This document shows positions 3,535 to 60,490 of a DNA stretch of 64,000 bases, piece by piece; the stretch's first letter is position 1; each line of letters begins with the position of its first letter. Origin of the DNA: an uncultured archaeon (lineage in GTDB: Archaea > Iainarchaeota > Iainarchaeia > Iainarchaeales > GCA-2688035); assembly GCA_964354805.1 (NCBI GenBank), contig CAYHBD010000009.1:91538-155537 (forward strand), given 5' to 3'. Under the pieces are notes generated by a model, which was not told the origin of the DNA, searched no databases, and was given only the letters and a program-made list of their open reading frames with translations. Made by a program: the position numbers and the translations under genes.

Positions 3535-4145
3535 TGAGGGTTCCGCCAAAGCAGTTCACATCAAAATTGGAGAAAAGCGTTCTTGGTATGGTTCAGCAGG
3601 AATACGAAGGCCTTGTTGATGAGGACATCGGCCTTGTTGTAGCCGTGACAAATGTCAGCAATGTAGGGGAAGGCATTGTTGTGCCAGGAGACGGCAGTGC
3701 ATACTATGACACGGAAATTGAAATGCTTGTATACAAGCCGCTGATGCACGAAGTGGTTGAAGGAAACATTAGTGAAATAACAGAGTTCGGCGCATTCGTA
3801 AGAATAAGCCCGATTGAAGGATTAATCCACGTTAGCCAGATAATGGATGACTTCATAAACTATGATGCGAAAACCCCTTCATTCGTTGGAAAGAAAACAA
3901 GAAAGAAGCTGATTGTCGATGACAGCGTTATTGCAAGGATTGTAACAATTTCCTTGAAGGGAAACATCCAGAACAGCAAAATCGGCCTGACAATGAGGCA
4001 GCCTTTCCTCGGAAAAGAGGACTGGATCAAAATGGACGAAAAAACAATCGGAAAAGACATTGGAAAAGAGCGAAAGGAGAAGCACGACAAGAGACAAAAA
4101 AGCGACAGGGACGAGAAAAAAGAGCAAGCACAAAAAGGGGGATAA
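3495..4145 (+). CDS. rpoE: DNA-directed RNA polymerase subunit E' (Rpo7/RpoE1) with an S1 domain and a K-rich C-terminal tail; the track start is GTG, and ATG at 3504 is the likely true start
   Basis: MYSLVKVKDKVRVPP... N-terminus, and an S1-like domain (GAFVRISPIEGLIHVSQIMDDF) typical of Rpb7/E'. Confidence 0.85.
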   Translation: MKKMYSLVKVKDKVRVPPKQFTSKLEKSVLGMVQQEYEGLVDEDIGLVVAVTNVSNVGEGIVVPGDGSAYYDTEIEMLVYKPLMHEVVEGNISEITEFGAFVRISPIEGLIHVSQIMDDFINYDAKTPSFVGKKTRKKLIVDDSVIARIVTISLKGNIQNSKIGLTMRQPFLGKEDWIKMDEKTIGKDIGKERKEKHDKRQKSDRDEKKEQAQKGG

Positions 4146-4360
4146 CAAAAAAGGGGGACAAACAAAAGGGCCATTAAAAAGCCTTTCTTTAAAAAAGAAA
4201 GCCTTGGGAAAGAAAGAATAAACAGGGGCTAAATAAAGCTTTGAAAAAATGTGAAAAAACAGGGCAACCTAAAAGGAGAAAGCGGATAAATTGCAATTAA
4301 AAAAAGGTTTTTGAAAAAAAAGGAGTAAAAGGAAAAAGCAATTTTTAATCGTGGTTTTTT

Positions 4361-4555
4361 ATGGTGAAAGAAAAAGCTTGCAGGAACTGCAGAATGGTTG
4401 TATTGGAGGGAACAGAGTGCCCGAACTGCGGCGGCGCTGCCTTCACTACATTCTGGAGAGGCTATGTTGTCATTCTTGACCCGGAAAAAAGCGAAATCGC
4501 AAAAAAGATGGGCATAAGCAAAAAAGGAAAATTCGCCCTAAGGCTGAGCAGGTAG
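4361..4555 (+). CDS. spt4: Transcription elongation factor Spt4 (RpoE''), zinc ribbon
   Basis: CRNC...CPNCG zinc ribbon followed by ILDPEKSEIAKKMGI, as in archaeal Spt4. 64 aa, ends with TAG. Confidence 0.8.
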   Translation: MVKEKACRNCRMVVLEGTECPNCGGAAFTTFWRGYVVILDPEKSEIAKKMGISKKGKFALRLSR

Positions 4556-4622
4556 TTGGGGGATTTGGGAAACAATAGGAAACGAGACAGCAAAAAAATC
4601 ACGCTAAGGCTGAGCAGGTAAA
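4534..4622 (+). repeat. Duplicate of the spt4 3' end (last ~8 codons plus stop) 66 bp downstream
   Basis: cgccctaaggctgagcaggtag versus cacgctaaggctgagcaggtaa, with the stop position conserved (TAG/TAA). Confidence 0.65.
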
Positions 4623-4645
4623 CACAGGGCGCAAGGGGTGGGACG

Positions 4646-5068
4646 ATGCACATTGATATCGAAAAGAAAAAAGAAAACAAGGCATTGAACAGAACAGAGA
4701 TTGCATTCAAAATAAGCGAGTGCAAGGTAACACCAAAGCGCTTGGATGTCAGGGCAAAAATCGCTGCTTTAATGAGTGCAAAAGAACAGCTTGCGATTGT
4801 TGACAGCCTGCACCAGCAATTCGGCTCGGACATTGTAACAGGAACTGCAAAGGTTTACAATGACGAGGCAACACTGCGAAAGCTTGAGCCAAGCTATTTG
4901 ATTGCAAGAAACGAGGGAAGAAAGGAAAAGAAGGAAAAAGCTGCGGGAAAACCGGAAGAAAAGAAAGAGAAAACAGAGAAAAAGCCCGAGGAAAAATCTG
5001 CCGAGGCAAAAGAGAAAGCAGAAAAGCCAGGGGAGAAACCAGCAGCGAAAGAGGCTGCAAAAGCGTAA
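4646..5068 (+). CDS. rps24e: 30S ribosomal protein S24e with a K/E-rich C-terminal extension
   Basis: NKALNRTEIAFKI...TPKRLDVRAKIAALM...IVDSLHQQFGSDIVTGTAKVY matches the S24e family. Confidence 0.85.
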   Translation: MHIDIEKKKENKALNRTEIAFKISECKVTPKRLDVRAKIAALMSAKEQLAIVDSLHQQFGSDIVTGTAKVYNDEATLRKLEPSYLIARNEGRKEKKEKAAGKPEEKKEKTEKKPEEKSAEAKEKAEKPGEKPAAKEAAKA

Positions 5069-5087
5069 TTGTTTGTGGAAGTGATTA

Positions 5088-5306
5088 TTGATGCCGAAGA
5101 AAGTGAAGGAAAGAAAGGGGAAAAGGCAGAGGAAAAAGCACCCGAAGCACCTCAAATCAACTCTTTATAACGCTAAAGATTCTGGCGTTGAGAGAAAGAA
5201 CCGCTTCTGCCCAAAGTGCGGCCCAGGAATTTTCATGGCCCTACACAAAGAAAGGGTCACATGCGGAAAATGCGGTTACACGGAATGGAAAAAACAGGGC
5301 AGCTGA
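5088..5306 (+). CDS. rps27ae: 30S ribosomal protein S27ae (zinc ribbon)
   Basis: CPKCG...CGKCG C4 ribbon, basic N-terminus, and the conserved S24e-S27ae adjacency. Confidence 0.85.
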
Positions 5307-5955: not shown

Positions 5956-6579
5956 ATGGCAATAGTAAAACAACTGTTGGGCGGAAACGAAAACGCAATA
6001 ATTGAAAAAGCCGCAAAAATCCTCAAAGATGGCGGCGTAATAATTTTCCCTACGGAAACAAGCTATGGCCTGGCTGTTGATGCAACAAACGAGACAGCAA
6101 TAACAAAAATGGTGAAGGCAAAGGAACAGCCAGAGGAAAAAAACATTTCAATAATCGTATCCGATTTGGAGCAGGCAAAAAAATTCGGCAAAATCACGCC
6201 TGAAGCAGAAACCCTTGCAAAGAAATTCATGCCAGGGCCCCTGACGCTCGTAGTGGAAAAACAGTACAATGTGTCGAATGCGCTTGCGGAGAAAACAATT
6301 GCTTTCAGAATCTCAAGCAACAGGATTGCAACAGAGCTGTGCAAAGCGCTCGGAAACCCGATAACAGCAACCAGCGCAAACCTGCACGGAAGGCCGAACA
6401 TCTATTCAGGAAAAGAGGCAATAAAGCAGTTTGGCGGCAGGGTTCACATGATTATTGACGCTGGCGAGCTGCCAAAAATCCCGCCAAGCACAATGTATGA
6501 CACAATCAACAAAAGAGTCCTGCGCTTCGGCCCAATAACAGAACAGGAAATAAAACAGGTGCTGGAGGAGCAGAAATGA
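5956..6579 (+). CDS. sua5: L-threonylcarbamoyladenylate synthase (Sua5/YrdC/TsaC family), single YrdC domain
   Basis: FPTETSYGL motif, ...TSAN...G, ~200 aa YrdC fold. Confidence 0.8.
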   Translation: MAIVKQLLGGNENAIIEKAAKILKDGGVIIFPTETSYGLAVDATNETAITKMVKAKEQPEEKNISIIVSDLEQAKKFGKITPEAETLAKKFMPGPLTLVVEKQYNVSNALAEKTIAFRISSNRIATELCKALGNPITATSANLHGRPNIYSGKEAIKQFGGRVHMIIDAGELPKIPPSTMYDTINKRVLRFGPITEQEIKQVLEEQK

Positions 6580-8802: not shown

Positions 8803-9441
8803 CTAAAGCTTAAGAGCGCTTCTAAGGTGGCTTAAGTCCAATACAAAAACCATTAAAGTATTCTTTTTTGTGTCAATGACATATTCCCAACTCTCAGTGA
8901 TATCGATTCCGTCTTCTTCAGAAGCACGTTTTGTCATGACATCAACATAATCCAAAGCACTTTTTATTTCTTGGCTTCTTTCAAGACCCCTTTTTTTAAA
9001 AAAAACGAAGACGTTGTTTTTATTCATTGTTTGCAAGTCCCCAAACTTTCGCAAGTCCGTAAGTGCAAGATGTTTTTCTCCGTTAATTTCAACAACCCTT
9101 ATTGTTGGTGGCACAGGATACCCTTTTGCCCTAAGATTTTGAAACATCTTAAATTCTCTTTCAGCAATGCTGCTTTGAGTTTCACCGCAAAACTCTTTCA
9201 GGTTATATCTTTTTACAACAAGCCTTATTTTTTTATTTCCTTTACAGACTATAAAATTATAAGCCCTGCCATGCCGCCCCGCGGCGGGCATTTTCTCGGT
9301 TACTTGCAAAAGCCCAGGGCCTGTTATACCAAACAGCGCATTAACTTTCTTAATCTTTTGAACCCGGTGAACTGTATCAGGATGGAAATCCTTTTTTCCA
9401 CCCCTTAAAAAGTTTTTTTGGTGCCCGGATTTGTGCTTCAT
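8803..9441 (-). CDS. Hypothetical protein in the AT-rich island, with weak RIO/Kdo-kinase-like N-lobe similarity
   Basis: AEREFKMFQNLRAKGYPVPP resembles the RIO/Bud32/Kdo kinase helix motif, but there is no clear HGDL catalytic loop. Local GC is clearly below the window average. Confidence 0.3.
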   Translation of the reverse strand: MKHKSGHQKNFLRGGKKDFHPDTVHRVQKIKKVNALFGITGPGLLQVTEKMPAAGRHGRAYNFIVCKGNKKIRLVVKRYNLKEFCGETQSSIAEREFKMFQNLRAKGYPVPPTIRVVEINGEKHLALTDLRKFGDLQTMNKNNVFVFFKKRGLERSQEIKSALDYVDVMTKRASEEDGIDITESWEYVIDTKKNTLMVFVLDLSHLRSALKL

Positions 9442-9542
9442 AATAATTAATGTTATTAGAAAGTAATTAAATTGTTTAATGGTAGAAGAATATTACAACA
9501 TTGACTTAAGAAGGCAAATAAAGTTGTTTGTGGTTAACGCTT

Positions 9543-9878
9543 TTAGGCGAGCGCTTTTACGGCTTGTTCCTCAAACCCAATTTTTTCCATTGATTTTTTC
9601 ATCAACTCGTTGTCCAATTCAATCAATTGTTTTACCACAGGGTTTTTGTTATTGAGCTTGAACATGCTTGCCTTGCCGACTTTTCTGGTGTAAGTTACTG
9701 TATTGGCTTTTTCCAACTTGCCCCAGAAGGTTTCCAATGTATTCCAGGAAACATTGGCATTCCTGCAAATGTCTTTCTTTGAGTAGTCAAATATGTCGTT
9801 CTCTATCAAGAAATCCAAGACCCTAATTATCGGGGAATCGCCAAAGAACAGCACAAACAAAGACTTGTCTTCAGCCAT
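9543..9878 (-). CDS. Small winged-helix DNA-binding protein (putative transcriptional regulator), divergent from the next gene
   Basis: 111 aa with a predicted wHTH (RVLDFLIENDIFDYSKKDICRNANVSWNTLETF). It lies in the AT-rich island, with an AT-rich divergent promoter region at 9879..10077. Confidence 0.45.
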   Translation of the reverse strand: MAEDKSLFVLFFGDSPIIRVLDFLIENDIFDYSKKDICRNANVSWNTLETFWGKLEKANTVTYTRKVGKASMFKLNNKNPVVKQLIELDNELMKKSMEKIGFEEQAVKALA

Positions 9879-10077
9879 ACAAAGAAATCCCTTTTATAAT
9901 TGATATAACTACTTGTAGGTAAATAATTTAAATAGTAGAAGGCCAAGTTTGAGTGCAAAAGATATTTCGTTTTTTGACGGTAAGAAAGAAGCATTTTAAA
10001 AGTATCGTATGGGGGTATTTAAATAAGGAAAAAACGAAAAGAAAATATTAAATAGGAGAACTTACTTATAAAGGTAG

Positions 10078-10335
10078 ATGCACATGGCAGGAACTTCTTT
10101 TTTGACCTTCAAGAAAAATGACGTTGAACAAATACTGACAACGTTAGATATCGTCACAGAAAAAAAGGGCGTGAAAGAATTTATTTTAGATGAGAAAAAA
10201 GAGATTGCAAAGTGCTATGTCTGCGATGAAAAGCTTACTCCAGAAAACATAGGGAACATAATCAAAGGCTCAAAAATTCTCCTTTGTGACAATCCTTCCT
10301 GCTTTAGCGGATACCTTGTTGAGAAAAAACTTTAG
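10078..10335 (+). CDS. Hypothetical small protein with a CxxC...C...C putative zinc-binding motif
   Basis: CYVCDEK...LLCDNPSC. AT-rich island. Confidence 0.3.
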   Translation: MHMAGTSFLTFKKNDVEQILTTLDIVTEKKGVKEFILDEKKEIAKCYVCDEKLTPENIGNIIKGSKILLCDNPSCFSGYLVEKKL

Positions 10336-10341
10336 ACACTT

Positions 10342-11142
10342 ATGGCTGAATTTATTAACAAGGTAAAAAAACGATTTGGGGGAAAGGTAAAAATAGGCAT
10401 AAATCCCTCATTCGAAACTGAAAAGGCTGAAATCCATATTGGGCACAACTACAACATTACGATAAATCAGTTCGGAGACAAAACAGACCCAAAAAAAATC
10501 TTGGAAAGCTTTGAAAAAGAGCAAATACTTACAAGAGACGACCTACTTCTCCCAGACATAGAGCAAACAGAAACGGTTATCACAAGAAGTCAACTCCTGC
10601 TGTTCTACCGCCCCCATCTAAGCAAAAAAGATTTGGCTGCCCTCAATGACAGTCTTAGCATAATAGCTTTGGAAGATAAAGAACTGAATGAGGAAGCAAA
10701 AAAAAGACACGAGCAATTGTATAAAGCGTATAAAAAACGGGGTCTCGTGATATATAACTTTGCAAGAAGTGGGCTCTTTGAAACCGAAATAAAAGTAACC
10801 CTTGAAAGGATAATCAAGCAACATCTCGGAAAAGAAGTTAAAACAATAGATGAATTCAATAACTATTTTGAAGGACTAATTCAAAGACACCCCGCAAACA
10901 TTTATGTTAGCAAATACTGGGCTGAACATAGAGTATTGGATGAGATCCAAGAAAGATTGGAATTGATATTACGAGATAAAACAAGCTTAATCAAAATATA
11001 TTGCAGGGAACCGCAATTGGGGATGGTCAAAACTGTGTGTAACCAAGTAGAAAGTTTATTTACTATAACTCATGATGAGTATAGGTTTGGAAAAAATAAA
11101 GCATACACATTTTATCTGGCCCTTAAAGAAGATGCTGATTAA
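10342..11142 (+). CDS. Hypothetical protein (266 aa), no recognisable domain
   Basis: Long clean ORF in the AT-rich island. Its stop is immediately followed (ATG at 11143) by kae1. Confidence 0.35.
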   Translation: MAEFINKVKKRFGGKVKIGINPSFETEKAEIHIGHNYNITINQFGDKTDPKKILESFEKEQILTRDDLLLPDIEQTETVITRSQLLLFYRPHLSKKDLAALNDSLSIIALEDKELNEEAKKRHEQLYKAYKKRGLVIYNFARSGLFETEIKVTLERIIKQHLGKEVKTIDEFNNYFEGLIQRHPANIYVSKYWAEHRVLDEIQERLELILRDKTSLIKIYCREPQLGMVKTVCNQVESLFTITHDEYRFGKNKAYTFYLALKEDAD

Positions 11143-12168
11143 ATGCAGAGCAAAGACGGCATTACTTGCCTTGGCATTGAGAGCACCGCACTCTAGAGGG
11201 TTCTAGGCGGATATACTTTCGGTGCCGGAATAGTTAGCGACAGCTGCGGCAAATGCAATATTCTCGCAAACGAAAAGCACAGCGTTTCAACAGCACAGGG
11301 CGGCCTGATTCCCCGCGAATTGGCAGCGCACCATTTCAAGCACGCGAAGCAGGTGATAGAGGCAGCGCTGCAAAAAGCCAACCTGAAAATTGCAGATGTT
11401 GATTTGATTGCATTCAGCCAGGGGCCTGGCATTGGGCAGGCATTGAGGGTTGGGGCTGTTGCAGCAAGAACGCTTGCCCTCGCGCACAACAAGCCGTTGC
11501 TTGGCGTGAACCACTGCGTTGCACACGTTGAAATAGGAAAGGCACTTACTGGGGCAAAAAACCCGATTGTAGTTTATGTAAGCGGTGCAAACACGCAGAT
11601 AATCGGCTATGAGGAAGGAAAGTATCGTGTTTATGGTGAAACACTTGACATTGGAGTTGGAAATCTGCTGGATGCGTTTGGCAGGGCGCTTGGCTTGGGT
11701 TTCCCGGCAGGGCCTGTTCTGGACAAAATGTATTTTGAAAAAAAGAAATATGTTCCACTGCCTTACACTGTAAAGGGAATGGATTTGGCTTTCTCAGGGC
11801 TGCAGACAGCGGCAGAGCAAAAAATTGCAAATGAGAGAAAAGAGGACTTGGCTTACAGCCTGCTGCACAATGCCTTTGCAATGGTTACAGAGGTAAGCGA
11901 GAGGGCCCTTGCACACACTGAGAAGAACGAATTGCTGCTCACTGGCGGAGTTGCTGCAAGCAAGGCGCTGAGGGAAATGCTGCAGAAAATGTGCGATGCG
12001 CGTTCATGCAAGTTTTTTGTCCCGCCTTTTGATGTGTGCGTGGACCAGGGAACAATGATTGCATGGCTTGGATTGATAATGCACAAAGCAGGCAACAGGA
12101 TGAAAGTGGAAAACAGCGTTGTCAACCCAAAGCAGAGGGCTGACCAGATTGAAGTGAACTGGGTTTAA
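11143..12168 (+). CDS. kae1: tRNA N6-threonylcarbamoyladenosine synthase Kae1/TsaD. The N-terminal region carries a 21-nt insert with an in-frame TAG (11194..11196). The six-frame track starts at a TTG at 11320, which would delete the essential N-terminal motif.
   Basis: The frame is continuous from ATG 11143. CLGIESTA..[L*RVLGG]..YTFGAGIV flanks the insert, and HCVAHVEIG, the metal-binding His pair and a C-terminal GGVAAN-like region are all Kae1-typical. The gene is not fused to bud32. Confidence 0.8.
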
Positions 12169-32527: not shown

Positions 32528-33130
32528 ATGCGGCTGGTAAGGCAGGGAGCAGAGGCAAAGCTGTTCAGAACAGAATTTGAGGGAAAGCCCGCGCTCTTGA
32601 AGCAGCGTTTGCCAAAAGATTACAGGTGCAATGAGTTGGATGAAAGGCTGAGGAAGGAAAGAACAACAGTGGAGGGAAATCTGCTGAGGGCCGCAAGGCA
32701 GCTTGGCATCAACACACCGCTCGTTTTCTCAGTTGAAAAGGGGAAGAGCGAAATATTAATGCAATTCATTTCCGGGCCCAGGGTAAAAGACGTTTTAAGC
32801 AAAAAGAACCTGAAAATCTGTAGTGACATTGGCAAAGCAATTGCACTAATGCACGAAAGCAATCTGATTCACGGCGACCTGACCACTTCAAATATTCTGC
32901 TTGACGGAAAAAAGTTGTTCTTTATTGATTTTGGATTGGGCTACCGCAGCAGCAAGCTGGAGGACAAGGCAGTTGATTTGCTTGTTTTCAAAAAAACATT
33001 TGAGGCAACCCACTGCAAGCTGATGCCAAAAGGCTGGGAGAAAATAATTGGGGGCTATCTGCAGGCAGGCGGCTCAGATGGCATTGTAAAACAGATGCAG
33101 AAAGTGGAGCAAAGAGTGAGGTACCATTAG
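32528..33130 (+). CDS. bud32: KEOPS complex kinase Bud32 (standalone)
   Basis: About 200 aa RIO-type kinase. LIHGDLTTSNILL catalytic loop and FIDFGLG DFG-like motif. Confidence 0.8.
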   Translation: MRLVRQGAEAKLFRTEFEGKPALLKQRLPKDYRCNELDERLRKERTTVEGNLLRAARQLGINTPLVFSVEKGKSEILMQFISGPRVKDVLSKKNLKICSDIGKAIALMHESNLIHGDLTTSNILLDGKKLFFIDFGLGYRSSKLEDKAVDLLVFKKTFEATHCKLMPKGWEKIIGGYLQAGGSDGIVKQMQKVEQRVRYH

Positions 33131-33332: not shown

Positions 33333-34043
33333 TTGGTGATTTTATTGGCAAAAAAGAAGGAAGAGCAAAAAGAGGGCAGGGAAGCCAAGCGGGAAAAGGC
33401 TAGCGATAAGAAGGCTGCGAAAGAAAAGGAAGAAGAGAAACAGAAAGCTGCCGAAAAAAAGCCCAGGCAGCACAAGCCGAGGGTAACGGAATTGGAGCAC
33501 AAGCTGGCTGAGGCACAGGAAAAGCTTAGGCAGAAAAAGGAGAAAGAGGCCAAAGAGGAGGGCAAAGCAGCTGAAAAAGCCACTGCTGAAAAGCCGCTGC
33601 ATGCAAAGGAAGGTCTGCCTGAAAGACTGCACAGGGAGCGGAAGCCGGGAGTTCCTGCATGGGTTGAATTAAAGCCAGCTGAGGCAGTTGAGGCAATGGT
33701 TAATCTGGCTAACGCAGGGCACAGCAGCAGCGAGATTGGAATGCTTTTGAGGGACCAGTACGGGGTTCCAAACATTAAGGCATTGTGCGGCAAGAGCATT
33801 GAAGAGATTCTTGCAGAGCACAAATTGCTGCCTGAGATTCCATCAGACCTGATGAATTTGATTAAGAGAAGCGTTAATTTAAACAAGCACCTTGCGAAAA
33901 ACAGGAAGGATTTCACTGCAAAAAGGGGCCTGCAGCTCAGTGTCGCAAAAATCAGGAACCTTGTAACTTACTACAAGAGAAAGGGCAAGCTGCCAATGGA
34001 CTGGCATTACAGCGAGGAAACAGCAGCATTGCTGGTGAAGTGA
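33333..34043 (+). CDS. rps15: 30S ribosomal protein S15 (uS15, eukaryotic S13e type) with a ~90-aa K/E-rich N-terminal extension; non-ATG start, exact start uncertain
   Basis: GHSSSEIGMLLRDQYGVPNIK...LMNLIKRSVNLNKHL...RGLQLSVAKIRNLVTYYKRKGKLP is closely similar to the archaeal S15/S13e family. Confidence 0.8.
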   Translation: MVILLAKKKEEQKEGREAKREKASDKKAAKEKEEEKQKAAEKKPRQHKPRVTELEHKLAEAQEKLRQKKEKEAKEEGKAAEKATAEKPLHAKEGLPERLHRERKPGVPAWVELKPAEAVEAMVNLANAGHSSSEIGMLLRDQYGVPNIKALCGKSIEEILAEHKLLPEIPSDLMNLIKRSVNLNKHLAKNRKDFTAKRGLQLSVAKIRNLVTYYKRKGKLPMDWHYSEETAALLVK

Positions 34044-37308: not shown

Positions 37309-37845
37309 ATGAAAAAAACCAAAAAGGAAAAGAAAAGCCATAGCGCAAAAGCAGCAAAAAAGGGTTTTGGTAAAAAAGCGGTTATTTTTCTAATCAAATT
37401 TTTTGCAATCTACGCAATAGCACAGGCGGCAATTTTAATCGCACCGCTCGGTCCGCTGAAAGAATGGATTGCATTAATTGAAGCAAGCGCGCTTGGGCTG
37501 CAGGCGCAGGGCAACAATATTTTGTTCAACGCGCATTCTTTTGAAATCACGGCGCAGTGCACTGGCTTGATGAGCGCAAGCGTTCTTGCGGCAATCGCAC
37601 TTAGCTTGAAAAAGCCCGGCCAGCGGAAAAAAATCGTGTTAATTGCTGCAGGCGCTGTGCTGCTCTTCTTCATAAACCTGTTTCGCGTTTATCTTGTCCT
37701 GCTTGCAGCAATCGCATTCAATCCTGATGCAGCAGGAACCCTGCACGAAATAACATGGTTCGCAATGGCTGCGCTAATTATTGTAATATGGTATTATTTG
37801 ACTAAAAGGATTGCCGGCGCAAAGGCGTTTGCGGAAATGCTGTAA
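37309..37845 (+). CDS. Exosortase/archaeosortase-family protein (short form)
   Basis: Multi-TM protein with TAQCTGLMS (the catalytic Cys motif xxCSGxxS of exo-/archaeosortases) followed by NLFRVYLVLL (conserved Arg). Only 178 aa with a basic N-terminus. Confidence 0.5.
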   Translation: MKKTKKEKKSHSAKAAKKGFGKKAVIFLIKFFAIYAIAQAAILIAPLGPLKEWIALIEASALGLQAQGNNILFNAHSFEITAQCTGLMSASVLAAIALSLKKPGQRKKIVLIAAGAVLLFFINLFRVYLVLLAAIAFNPDAAGTLHEITWFAMAALIIVIWYYLTKRIAGAKAFAEML

Positions 37846-39843: not shown

Positions 39844-40923
39844 CTAAAATATTGTCTTTTTCTTTGCCCTCTCAACATACCACAGCAGCAGCGGGGCGTT
39901 CATCAGCCATGTTCCAATTATGTCTCCAACAAGGCCAAACAGCAGCACTGCTGAGATTTCAAAAATTATGCTGATCTGGTTGAAGTAAGAGACTACCAAC
40001 ATCACCAGAAGCGCGCCTATTGTTGTGCCAGTCATTGTAAGGCCGGTGTTGAGGCTGCCGTAAGCCCTTTCAACAGGGCTTTTCTCCTTCCTCTGCAGCA
40101 TTCTCGAGGTGAGCATTACATCAGTGTCAATGCTGTAACCCAACAGCATCAGCAGTGTTGGAATGCTGCTCAGGGACAAAGGTATTGAGAATACAGCCAT
40201 CATTGCAACAGCGCACCCCACATCAAAGATTCCGCACACTATGACTGCAAAGCTGGGAATGATTTTCCTGAAGAAAATGAAAATCACTATGGTTACGAGA
40301 ATAACCGCGAATATTGCAACATTAAGCCCTGTCTGCCAGAAAGAAGCGCTCAGGGTAGGCGATATCTCCCTTCTCTGGAAAGCACTGCTTTCGGATAATG
40401 AAAAGCGCTGCTTGATCAAATCCTGCATTTGCTGGCTGGCATTCTTGCCTGCCTCAATCAAGGCTAATTCAGCCTTGTTTACCGCCTCTTCAGGCTCACT
40501 TGGCAGGGTTGTGTCAGTGAGGTAACGCTTTACGCTTTCCACTGCATCCCTCGCAAGCTGCAGCGCGGCATCAGGATTATCAGGGTTTGTTTCAAGCGCT
40601 GCCCTGGCTGCCTCTACAGATGCTTTTCCTGATTCCAGGGCAGTGTCTGCCGCAAACTGGATGTTCACGCCGTATCCAGCAGGGCCTGAAACACTGCTTA
40701 CTTTTAATTCTGTTAGTTCAAAGTTTTGTGAGAGCAGACTGCTCAGTTCTGTTGCATCAATGGGCTTGTCTGCCCTGATTATCACCATGGTTCCGCCCTT
40801 GAAGTCAATTCCCATAGGCACTTTGGGCCATACGAAAATGAGGATAAAGAAGACTATGTATAGGGCAATCGGAATTGCGAGCAGCATTTTGTAGTTTTTA
40901 CCGTAGAAGTTTGGCAGCTGCAA
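39844..40923 (-). CDS. secF: Protein-export membrane protein SecF (archaeal)
   Basis: GIDFKGGTMV motif, periplasmic domain, C-terminal TM bundle. Ends with TAG. Confidence 0.8.
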   Translation of the reverse strand: MQLPNFYGKNYKMLLAIPIALYIVFFILIFVWPKVPMGIDFKGGTMVIIRADKPIDATELSSLLSQNFELTELKVSSVSGPAGYGVNIQFAADTALESGKASVEAARAALETNPDNPDAALQLARDAVESVKRYLTDTTLPSEPEEAVNKAELALIEAGKNASQQMQDLIKQRFSLSESSAFQRREISPTLSASFWQTGLNVAIFAVILVTIVIFIFFRKIIPSFAVIVCGIFDVGCAVAMMAVFSIPLSLSSIPTLLMLLGYSIDTDVMLTSRMLQRKEKSPVERAYGSLNTGLTMTGTTIGALLVMLVVSYFNQISIIFEISAVLLFGLVGDIIGTWLMNAPLLLWYVERAKKKTIF

Positions 40924-58390: not shown

Positions 58391-58702
58391 ATGGTACTGC
58401 AAACCCCCTCATTTTCTATTTCAGAAAAAGCACCTGAGCCTACGGCAGAATCGCCCGAGAGAAAAAAAGGCAGCATTGAAATAATAAAAGAAACACTGCA
58501 AGAGCTCAAACAGCCAAGCGCCTGGCTGCGCTACACAAAAGAAATCGCCGCAGGCGTGGCAGGCAAAGCTGTTGCGCAAGGAAAAAAAGGCAGCAAGGGA
58601 GAAAAAAAGCACTTCTGGCAACTGCTGCAAAAACCCAGCTTCTGGATAACAATTGCGCTGCTGATTATTCTGGCAATAGTGCTTGCATGGATTTATTTAT
58701 AA
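58391..58702 (+). CDS. Hypothetical tail-anchored membrane protein
   Basis: Soluble charged N-terminus and a single C-terminal TM (FWITIALLIILAIVLAWIYL). The track's minus-strand U32-like ORF (58665..59483) overlaps its 3' end by ~38 nt, but that ORF's N-terminus is uncertain. Confidence 0.3.
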   Translation: MVLQTPSFSISEKAPEPTAESPERKKGSIEIIKETLQELKQPSAWLRYTKEIAAGVAGKAVAQGKKGSKGEKKHFWQLLQKPSFWITIALLIILAIVLAWIYL

Positions 58703-59483
58703 CCAGCCTGTCAATCCCCTTCAGCAGCAATTCTTTTTCCTTCGGCAATTTGTTGTTTTGGAAAAAAATCGCATTGCCGAACAAATAAAGCTGCGTTGGA
58801 AAGAAAGAATTGGTTAATTTGAACTGGTAAAGCCTGCACTCTTTATTGCAAGGGAAAACGCCGATTTTGCCGTGAAAAGAAATTTTATCACAGTTTGCAG
58901 CAAGACACAAACGAGTTGCTGAAACAAAGCAAAAAGGAAAGTAAAGGGAGCAGCGCAGCCTGCTCTTGCCCAAATTGGTGGCAATGCCCTGCGCCAAGTT
59001 ATCCAACTCAACCCTGGCAACACCATTCTGCTGCAAAAACTTTTGGAAATGACTATTTGCAGCATGGCTCTGCATTAAGTGTGCGTAGAATTCCTTTGGA
59101 ACTTTGGCTTTGAATGACGAAATCCTTGGGTCCCTGTACTGCCTGTTCAGCAGCCTGCCTGCAATCAGGGTTGCCTTGCTTTCTTTTGCAGCGTGCAGCA
59201 AGCCGTAATCGTTTACAACCAGCTCATCGCGCTCTGAAAGCATCTCTGCAAGAGGCAGAACAGAGCGCATTCCTGCATTTGTCAAAAAAGGCGTTACAAA
59301 AGAAAAACCGATTTCGTTCGCAGCACAAAAATTTTTAACAAAAAGGAAATCCTTTTTGGTTGGCAACAATCGTTCACAAAATTCAGCGCCGAAATAAATT
59401 CTATTAAATGATTTATCCCACTGGCGCAATTGCACCTTATTTTCTACAAACAAAGCTTTCTCAATGCCCTTCATATTTTCCAC
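58665..59483 (-). CDS. Peptidase U32-family paralog (UbiV/RlhA-like partner); N-terminus uncertain
   Basis: RIYFGAEFCERL N-terminal U32-like motif with several conserved Cys. It overlaps the upstream U32 gene by 13 nt, suggesting a co-translated pair. Confidence 0.45.
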   Translation of the reverse strand: MENMKGIEKALFVENKVQLRQWDKSFNRIYFGAEFCERLLPTKKDFLFVKNFCAANEIGFSFVTPFLTNAGMRSVLPLAEMLSERDELVVNDYGLLHAAKESKATLIAGRLLNRQYRDPRISSFKAKVPKEFYAHLMQSHAANSHFQKFLQQNGVARVELDNLAQGIATNLGKSRLRCSLYFPFCFVSATRLCLAANCDKISFHGKIGVFPCNKECRLYQFKLTNSFFPTQLYLFGNAIFFQNNKLPKEKELLLKGIDRLVINKSMQALLPE

Positions 59484-60490
59484 TTCCCTGCGCTCGGGTA
59501 ATAGCAGTTATTGCACTCGCAGGCCCTGTGATACAAATCAAAGTAAAGCCTGCCTGCCTCTTCCGCGAATTTTTTTGCAGGCAACTTTTTTGCATGCGAA
59601 GCGTTTTTTCGCAAGCCTTTTGTTAAAAGGCTTAAAGCAATCCCCTCTTTCACGGCAGCAATGTCCGCAATCTTTTTCTGCAGGCTGTTTGCCCTGCCTG
59701 CAATCTTCACTGAATCAACGCCGGCTTTGAGAAAAAAGGGCAAAGCGCACAAGCCGCAGTCATTATAGACAGTGTTGCACCAGACCTTTGCGTGCGCTGC
59801 AGCAATCTCCTTCTTGCAGGGAGCAGCGTTTCCCAGAACGCTTACAGAATAATTCATCCTGCACGCGAGAGGTTGCATTGGCAATTGCTGGCTTGGCTCA
59901 ACAATGTGCTGGAAAGAGCACAAGCCGTCAATGAAAGGGCAGATTGCATTCAAAACAAAGCACTCTGTTTCCAAGCCAAACCTTTTCGCCTGCCTTGAAA
60001 GCTGCACTGCTTCATTAACAGCCAAATGCCTTGGAAGAACAATTCGCTGAACGCCGAGCTGCTTGAAGAAATGCAGGGAATTGCTGTTGAAGCAGGGCTG
60101 CCCTGTGCTCAAAGAAATTTTTGCACCAGGAAACTTTTCCCGAGCCAACTGAATTAGAACAGGGTCTGCAATTATCAGCCCAGCTGCTCCGGCAGCAAGA
60201 GCTTGCTTAACATAGCGCAAAACAATTGGCATCTGTTCCTGGCTGTAAAAATGCGCGTTGAATGCAGCAAAAACTGGCACATTGCGCTTTTCAGCTGTTC
60301 TCACCGCGAGGCGCAATTCATTGAAAGAGGAAAGGTTCGCTGCCTTGTCATGCCTCAGGTTTATGCTCCCAACGAAAGTGAAGCGCTTTGCCCAATCAGG
60401 GGTCATAACGCCACAGTATAATTCGTTTGCCCCTGCTTCAATCAGGGGCAGCACTTCTGCACTGCTTGCAAAGGGAGAAAGTATTTGCAT
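59471..60490 (-). CDS. Peptidase U32-family protein (Fe-S dependent hydroxylase-type U32, UbiU/RlhA/TrhP-like)
   Basis: GANELYCGV...RF N-terminal U32 signature, a TIM-barrel-like alternation, and a conserved Cys cluster (CPFIDGLC...C). Confidence 0.6.
   Translation of the reverse strand: MQILSPFASSAEVLPLIEAGANELYCGVMTPDWAKRFTFVGSINLRHDKAANLSSFNELRLAVRTAEKRNVPVFAAFNAHFYSQEQMPIVLRYVKQALAAGAAGLIIADPVLIQLAREKFPGAKISLSTGQPCFNSNSLHFFKQLGVQRIVLPRHLAVNEAVQLSRQAKRFGLETECFVLNAICPFIDGLCSFQHIVEPSQQLPMQPLACRMNYSVSVLGNAAPCKKEIAAAHAKVWCNTVYNDCGLCALPFFLKAGVDSVKIAGRANSLQKKIADIAAVKEGIALSLLTKGLRKNASHAKKLPAKKFAEEAGRLYFDLYHRACECNNCYYPSAGKWKI

Follow-up and report, generated by a model that had tools for sequence, protein, structure and literature searches.

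Our analysis of the window, the whole 64-kb stretch of DNA considered here, indicates that 21 nt at positions 11192-11212 are very probably a bulge-helix-bulge (BHB) intron of the archaeal type within kae1 pre-mRNA, spliced by EndA and RtcB, and that the gene is most likely intact but misannotated. Names attached to homologues and related loci, such as Candidatus Iainarchaeum, place the organism in the Iainarchaeota (Diapherotrites), within the DPANN archaea. We infer splicing from the fold of the transcript, a unique cut register, conservation of the element with compensatory change, and selection on the spliced gene. RNA splicing at a BHB motif is absent from the three explanations offered in an earlier sequence-only reading of this DNA, namely a sequencing or assembly error, pseudogenization, and translational recoding or bypass.

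The kae1 insert and its predicted fold

The kae1 open reading frame runs on the forward strand, as do all elements described below, from an ATG at 11143 to a TAA at 12166-12168 in a single frame, with a TAG at 11194-11196 as the sole interruption. Translation from the ATG gives MQSKDGITCLGIESTAL*RVLGGYTFGAGIVSD..., and the product matches the Pfam TsaD family (PF00814). In our model, exon 1 (11143-11191) contributes 16 codons and the initial C of a His codon, the 21-nt intron (11192-11212; tctagagggttctaggcggat) lies in phase 1, and exon 2 (11213-12168) continues through the TAA stop, so that the spliced coding sequence specifies 334 aa beginning MQSKDGITCLGIESTA-H... and is 93% identical to the protein of an intact, intron-less relative (P0001). 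These bounds follow from the BHB geometry together with the only cut rule that restores an invariant His. Excision of 11192-11212 creates GCA C|AT ACT, or Ala-His-Thr, and restores GIESTAHTFGAGIV, in agreement with the universal motif ...GIESTA-H-TFG..., which reads TAHTFG, with His and not Tyr, in all intron-less relatives examined. The longest mechanical open reading frame at the locus is a 282-aa piece starting at 11320, and the public annotation (P0003) is this same piece at 100% identity.

Several elements of the sequence-only reading hold up. The insert does break a conserved kae1 motif with an in-frame TAG, as translation confirms, and TCTAG does occur in it twice (11192-11196 and 11202-11206). 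Removal of 21 nt does restore the Kae1/TsaD motif, but the unit proposed for removal, 11191-11211, was one base off; that excision puts Tyr in the window product, and Asp or Asn in those of relatives, where His is otherwise universal, and the motif it gave, with Tyr after "STA", disagrees with all intron-less relatives. Likewise, the description of kae1 as broken is correct for the frame as written, but not for the gene after predicted splicing, with its complete coding sequence under purifying selection.

A minimum free energy (MFE) fold computed on 11165-11245 as RNA (81 nt) places the insert at the tip of a long exon-exon stem, with an outer helix of 13 bp between 11171-11183 and 11216-11228. 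The 5' strand of this outer helix h (11171-11185; exon 1, codons for LGIES) continues past the 13 paired bases with a mismatched C11184 and a paired A11185, as drawn from the MFE fold, RNAalifold, and pair counts. It is followed by the exon strand of the central helix H, CCGC (11186-11189), which pairs with the intron strand GCGG (11207-11210) in the MFE fold, the pair counts, and RNAalifold. The 5' bulge, A-C|U (11190-11192), has its predicted cleavage after C11191. Within the intron, CUAGA and UCUAG form a 5-bp inner hairpin h' closed by the loop GGGU (11193-11206). The 3' bulge, A-U|A (11211-11213), has its predicted cleavage after U11212, and the 3' strand of h (11214-11228; exon 2, codons for HTFGAG) opens with a paired U11214 and a mismatched A11215 before the paired stretch 11216-11228.

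The 3' side is not textbook, because the helix beside the 3' bulge opens with a lone A-U pair and then a C.A mismatch. The 3' bulge, AUA, measures 3 nt if A11185 pairs with U11214, leaving the C11184.A11215 mismatch; unless this pair is counted, the energy models (MFE and RNAalifold) draw the 3' side as a 2x5 internal loop. With the pair counted, each BHB strand reads 5'-central helix-bulge-flanking helix-3'. The pair is supported because the His codon is always CAT in the ten intron carriers described below, while intron-less genes use CAC or CAT. The stability of the fold is modest (z-score of -1.76 for 81 nt and approximately 0 for 55 nt).

A BHB is defined by a 4-bp helix with a 3-nt bulge on either side (PMC4090602; PMC5829648), and the modeled kae1 motif is near-canonical by this standard. 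The central helix has exactly 4 bp in the MFE fold of every variant and in RNAalifold, the two 3-nt bulges lie on opposite strands (the 3' bulge being conditional on A11185-U11214), and there are flanking helices on both sides, with h' of 5-8 bp and h consisting of the A-U pair, the C.A mismatch, and 12-13 bp. The joined product is functional in form, with GCA-CAT-ACT (TAHT) and a coding sequence of 328-336 aa in all ten variants. In pre-tRNA, the central helix holds the first two anticodon bases and the 37/38 splice site follows the second bulge base (PMC4090602; PMC5829648). Because cleavage of tRNA introns falls past the second base of each bulge, we place the kae1 cuts after C11191 and U11212. 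Cutting the window one base earlier would give Tyr, and one base later, Leu.

By analogy with the known enzymology, splicing would proceed as follows. The kae1 transcript would fold by pairing of exon CCGC (11186-11189) with intron GCGG (11207-11210), forming a central helix flanked by the bulges ACU and AUA, with the inner hairpin CUAGA-GGGU-UCUAG on one side and the long exon-exon outer helix on the other. EndA, the tRNA-splicing endonuclease, would cleave past the second bulge base, after 11191 and after 11212, and RtcB ligase would join the exons to produce GCA-CAT-ACT; the excised intron may circularize. In the predicted spliced mRNA, ...GCACCGCAC is directly joined to ATACTTTCGG, and the predicted junction peptide is ...GIESTAHTFGAGIVSD.... 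Translation of this mRNA would yield the full-length, 334-aa Kae1 carrying the restored motif, whereas translation of unspliced RNA would end two codons into the intron, at the TAG. An exact look-up of the ten predicted spliced products in a collection of 15 billion proteins found none of them, and an Rfam search of the window found nothing.

The identity of the processing enzymes leaves room for a variant of this scheme, namely a real RNA-level intron removed by an activity other than EndA/RtcB, or a palindromic DNA element whose transcript is cut by an unknown nuclease. Genes for EndA and RtcB are both absent from the 64-kb window, the region of the 3' bulge departs slightly from the canonical form, and the element is a short palindrome with which the 5' exon flank appears to travel. 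However, an insert of 20-30 nt cannot accommodate a group I or group II ribozyme, every base of the motif agrees with what defines an EndA substrate, the required cuts fall at the canonical positions, and both EndA and RtcB are reported from lineages throughout the archaea, DPANN among them (PMC5829648). We regard such an alternative activity as very unlikely.

Ten variants of the insert at one site

Ten distinct inserts occupy the identical kae1 site in independent Iainarchaeota (Diapherotrites) assemblies, including metagenome-assembled genomes (MAGs). Eight were retrieved via proteins, a route free of DNA-pattern bias, and two via an exon-anchored scan of metagenome contigs. Five of the introns are 20 nt long (L001, L002, L003, L010, and L031) and two are 21 nt (the window and L006), with single examples of 23 nt (L028), 24 nt (L030), and 30 nt (L027). 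Several relatives have odd gene calls, with N-terminal truncation or a start such as "...RTLEFLGG-DTFGAAIV", and their DNA carries an insert at this same site. Carriers are present in the MAGs GCA_053536015.1, GCA_964640195.1, and GCA_964373935.1 and, among other samples, in JGI 3300017971, 3300028032, and Ga0213870. A scan of genome contigs yielded 12 loci, one with an intron. Two of the seven metagenome pattern matches (L023 and L024) fell outside kae1 and were discarded as chance.

This recurrence bears directly on the suggestion that the insert is a sequencing or assembly artifact of the window contig. Short palindromic inserts can come from assembly errors, but inserts that differ in sequence are present at the same site, in at least ten variants, in independent NCBI MAGs, JGI metagenomes, and ENA and Logan assemblies, and identical variants were recovered from different samples (L003, L004, and L005; likewise L010 and L029). 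An artifact therefore has next to no probability.

Comparison of the variants also speaks to where the RNA would be cut. Cutting past the second bulge base restores His in all variants, while a shift of one base in either direction gives Tyr, Asp, or Asn on one side and Leu or Arg on the other. The 5' bulge has 3 nt in every variant; its excised third base is U or G, and its two exonic bases are invariant. In the 3' bulge, the excised second base is U, G, or A, and the exonic third base is invariant. Thus, the bulge bases that vary are precisely those predicted to be excised, which supports the cut register.

Changes in the inner helix are compensatory (C-G to U-A or A-U, and G-C to A-U), with double changes at two pairs; its first pair is C-G, U-A, or A-U depending on the variant, and the L027 inner helix is a wholly different 8-bp pairing, AUAAAAUU/AAUUUUAU. 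The hairpin loops (3-7 nt) are unrelated in sequence, and all length variation sits in the loop. In the ten-sequence alignment, 96.5% of cells are paired, compared with 35-45% when the partners are slid by 1-3 columns. By helix, pairing reaches 100% for the central helix, 100% for the inner helix, and 94% for the outer helix h; the central helix is invariant and so offers no covariation. Without guidance, RNAalifold recovers these helices from the ten variants, and each of the other variants folded alone adopts the same architecture.

Our case rests on this comparative evidence because BHB-like patterns are frequent by chance. A permissive BHB scan of the window returned 1731 raw matches. A strict scan recovered the kae1 intron among 140 matches, compared with 65-98 in block shuffles, such that strict canonical BHB-like patterns are approximately twofold more common in the real window; no other visibly broken gene in the window coincides with a match. 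Three other places in the window were inspected as possible split genes and none showed an interruption: the adjacent open reading frames 58665-59483 and 59471-60490 (a U32 peptidase and an unknown open reading frame), the S15 open reading frame at 33333-34043 (a partial N-terminal profile match), and an exosortase-like open reading frame at 37309-37845 (a partial profile match). Read from its first start, the S15 frame has a Lys/Glu-rich N-terminal extension of approximately 100 aa, and its match to the S13/S15 N-terminal profile starts only at position 21; its true start may lie further downstream.

The lengths of the inserts carry a further implication. Those of 20 and 23 nt, found in six of the ten variants, shift the kae1 frame unless removed, and the insert splits the His codon as C|AT. 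Read-through, suppression, or a ribosome hop cannot restore the protein under these circumstances; only joining at the nucleic acid level can. Recoding, whether as read-through of the TAG by a suppressor or Pyl tRNA or as ribosomal bypassing, would suit the window considered by itself, where the insert is 21 nt, in frame, and contains a single TAG. Across the variants, the frame is not kept through the stop, as amber suppression or pyrrolysine insertion would have it, and bypassing of the T4 gene 60 type, with its matching take-off and landing codons and colinear product, does not fit a His codon split after its first base and not rebuildable by a hop. The sequence-only reading correctly took TAG to be a genuine stop in the window: among 52 open reading frames of at least 100 aa, 30 end with TAA, 12 with TAG (including secF, 39844-40923), and 10 with TGA. 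ARAGORN found no tRNA of any kind in the 64-kb window, hence no suppressor or pylT there, and a scan of 25 related loci on short contigs for intron-bearing tRNAs of the lineage likewise yielded no tRNA gene. Moreover, none of more than 100 homologues has 7-10 extra residues in the conserved N-terminal motif. We consider recoding scarcely credible.

All ten variants share one more property, an in-frame stop at the second codon past the 5' splice site (CTC TAG, CTT TAG, CTA TAA, or CGC TAG), and this position is kept even in the variant with the rewritten inner helix. The pattern suggests that the stop may be selected as a fail-safe that terminates translation early on unspliced RNA.

Selection on the predicted spliced genes

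The spliced coding sequences are complete in all ten variants (328-336 aa). Pairwise comparison of the carrier genes after predicted splicing gives dN/dS values of 0.04-0.16, most dS values exceeding 1, and by this measure kae1 in its spliced form is under strong purifying selection. The seven codons around the junction, AGC ACC GCA C|AT ACT TTC GGT, are invariant in all ten carriers, third positions included, but every one of them varies among 12 intron-less relatives. Third positions frozen only in carriers indicate a constraint at the level of RNA structure on the exon halves of the motif. The locus also retains the conserved context Sua5...kae1-Lon, as for the intact gene.

These observations weigh against the idea that this copy of kae1 is a decaying pseudogene, broken by a small insertion while an intact second copy elsewhere supplies the function. 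The frame as written is indeed broken, and our inspection covered 64 kb of the genome, beyond which a second copy could lie. However, the insertion site has been kept across lineages with saturated synonymous sites (dS above 1), low dN/dS, and full-length spliced genes; the insert maintains a precise BHB fold with compensatory changes; the third codon positions of the flanking exons are frozen; and the gene remains in its usual context. Pseudogenization is highly improbable on this evidence.

Some neighboring features of the pathway and of relatives deserve mention. Three t6A/KEOPS-pathway genes lie in the 64-kb window: Sua5 (5956-6576), Kae1 (11143-12168), and a Bud32-like gene (32528-33130). 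The Bud32-like product is short, at 200 aa, with a RIO/protein-kinase fold, and the window Kae1 and kinase are unfused, though some source annotations call relatives "bifunctional ... synthase/kinase". In an Iainarchaeota-like contig (L032, product P0115), kae1 is intact at the His site and interrupted past ...GIGIVSDE, at 490-635. This interruption of approximately 150 nt has a GC content of 0.5-0.67, compared with approximately 0.4 in its flanks, and replaces the segment that normally codes for NGKCNILANEK; examination of it for a BHB gave nothing convincing. Possible sources of the stretch are another type of insertion element, chimeric assembly, and genuine pseudogenization.

In regard to the history of the element, a crude neighbor-joining tree of Kae1 shows the carriers scattered, each with an intron-less near-sister. 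The 5' 26 kae1 codons (11162-11245 in the window and equivalents in L001-L031) cluster by intron status, not by similarity of the gene body. Compared with its 93%-identical intron-less relative (locus L008, protein P0001), the window is 76% identical over these 5' codons and 89% over the gene body, whereas against a distant carrier (L027), the values are 87% and 69%. The Ser codon of IVSD, which lies outside the helices, is AGC in nine of the ten carriers, whereas intron-less genes with Ser at this position use TCN. Together, the clustering and the Ser codon imply that the 5' segment of kae1 has its own history. This suggests that the segment may have been exchanged by recombination, as an intron with its flank or as an intron-less flank; alternatively, repeated intron losses combined with strong constraint may account for the pattern.

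The surroundings of this 5' end are variable. In the window, four open reading frames with no Pfam match (212, 111, 85, and 266 aa) occupy 8803-11142, between a radical-SAM gene and kae1, whereas in L008, the radical-SAM gene directly adjoins kae1. The upstream region differs in each carrier, with an IS200-type Y1 transposase in L002, TauE in L006, and isochorismatase in L030, and it looks like a variable hot spot beside the intron-bearing 5' end. Directly downstream of the intron-bearing kae1 in L002, a 382-aa open reading frame (4093-5241) with a weak LAGLIDADG_3 match, of the homing-endonuclease type, occupies the position held by the Lon_C gene in other loci. A partial Kae1 (P0111) is approximately 85% identical to the window protein overall, with its first ~60 residues far more diverged; recombination or chimeric assembly may explain this.

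We can also entertain a bolder notion, in which the intron is more than a passenger: with approximately 50-80 nt of flank, it would move as a cassette from one Iainarchaeota lineage to another by homologous recombination, its fail-safe stop would be selected, and Kae1 output would be tied to tRNA splicing. We think this rather unlikely. If true, cbf5 and kae1, both encoding RNA-modification enzymes, would point to a regulatory coupling of tRNA/rRNA processing and modification capacity.

Comparison with known introns and broader implications

The closest precedent is the BHB intron of the cbf5 pre-mRNA. For more than 20 years, cbf5 has been the sole documented gene with BHB introns in archaeal coding sequences, and in Crenarchaeota only. 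Work on the cbf5 intron reportedly also includes that of Watanabe in 2002 and Yoshinari in 2006. It occurs in Desulfurococcales and Sulfolobales, measures 16-44 nt, is spliced by EndA, and has undergone lineage-specific loss (Yokobori 2009, PMC2738675). It shares several features with the kae1 intron: both introns are very short (16-44 compared with 20-30 nt), interrupt coding sequences of RNA-modification enzymes, are defined by a BHB-type fold and not by sequence, are patchy by lineage, and cause misannotation of their gene. The two differ in that removal of the cbf5 intron by the tRNA-splicing endonuclease is experimentally shown, whereas that of the kae1 intron is predicted. They also differ in host function (t6A synthesis for kae1 and pseudouridylation for cbf5) and in phylum (DPANN Iainarchaeota compared with the crenarchaeal Desulfurococcales and Sulfolobales). 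The near-canonical hBHBh' motif of kae1 contrasts with the relaxed motif of cbf5, which is linked to the (alpha-beta)2 type of EndA (PMC10485636). The kae1 intron sits 10-17 codons from the start. It is not the homologous element, which would lie in cbf5 of Desulfurococcales or Sulfolobales; the mechanism is of the same kind and the element is different.

Outside Crenarchaeota, the mRNA intron of HVO_1309 in Haloferax volcanii (Schwarz 2020, PMC7714728) is likewise a BHB-recognized mRNA substrate of EndA; knock-down of EndA revealed it, and in vitro cleavage provided confirmation. It lies in the 5' untranslated region and leaves the reading frame uninterrupted, unlike the kae1 intron. Canonical archaeal tRNA introns (hBHBh', position 37/38) share with kae1 the 4-bp helix, the 3-nt bulges on opposite strands, and a cut past the second bulge base. 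In kae1, however, the intron resides in an mRNA, two coding exon segments instead of an anticodon stem make up the outer helix, and the helix on the 3'-bulge side has an A-U pair and then a C.A mismatch. A more distant parallel is found in the HAC1 and XBP1 mRNAs of eukaryotes, which are spliced in the cytoplasm by IRE1 and a tRNA ligase (RtcB in animals) with no spliceosome. There too, a protein endonuclease acts with a tRNA ligase on a short, structure-defined mRNA intron, whose removal alters the frame or the product. Yet IRE1 recognizes stem-loops and not a BHB, and the reaction belongs to a regulated stress response, making this an analogy of mechanism and not a homology. HAC1/XBP1 splicing is mentioned in PMC4090602.

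A 2023 review counted two spliced archaeal mRNAs in total (PMC10485636), and our literature searches, in which journal coverage was partial, returned no prior report of a BHB intron in kae1 or in any DPANN mRNA. Thus, kae1 is most likely the second archaeal protein-coding gene known to contain a BHB intron. What is new is the host gene (kae1, encoding the t6A synthase), the lineage (DPANN), and a motif closer to canonical than that of cbf5; the mechanism is not new.

Our findings also have practical consequences for the annotation of these genomes. Public gene calls for the carriers are all wrong, either as truncations of 271-314 aa or with a bogus N terminus (P0003, P0015, P0029, P0031, P0048, P0065, P0067, and P0076), and in DPANN MAGs, a miscalled kae1 affects completeness as estimated from marker genes and also inventories of essential genes. 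At the same time, the kae1 intron offers a tractable substrate of 60-80 nt for studying how splicing operates alongside coupled transcription-translation, and how BHB introns are gained, lost, and exchanged.

More broadly, this second case in a coding sequence comes from a different superphylum and from a universally conserved essential gene. Its near-canonical motif is one that any type of EndA should cut, and its presence or absence is polymorphic between kae1 genes that are 93% identical. Taken together, the superphylum, the near-canonical motif, and the polymorphism suggest that introns of this kind are underdetected among archaea, and are not a crenarchaeal oddity.
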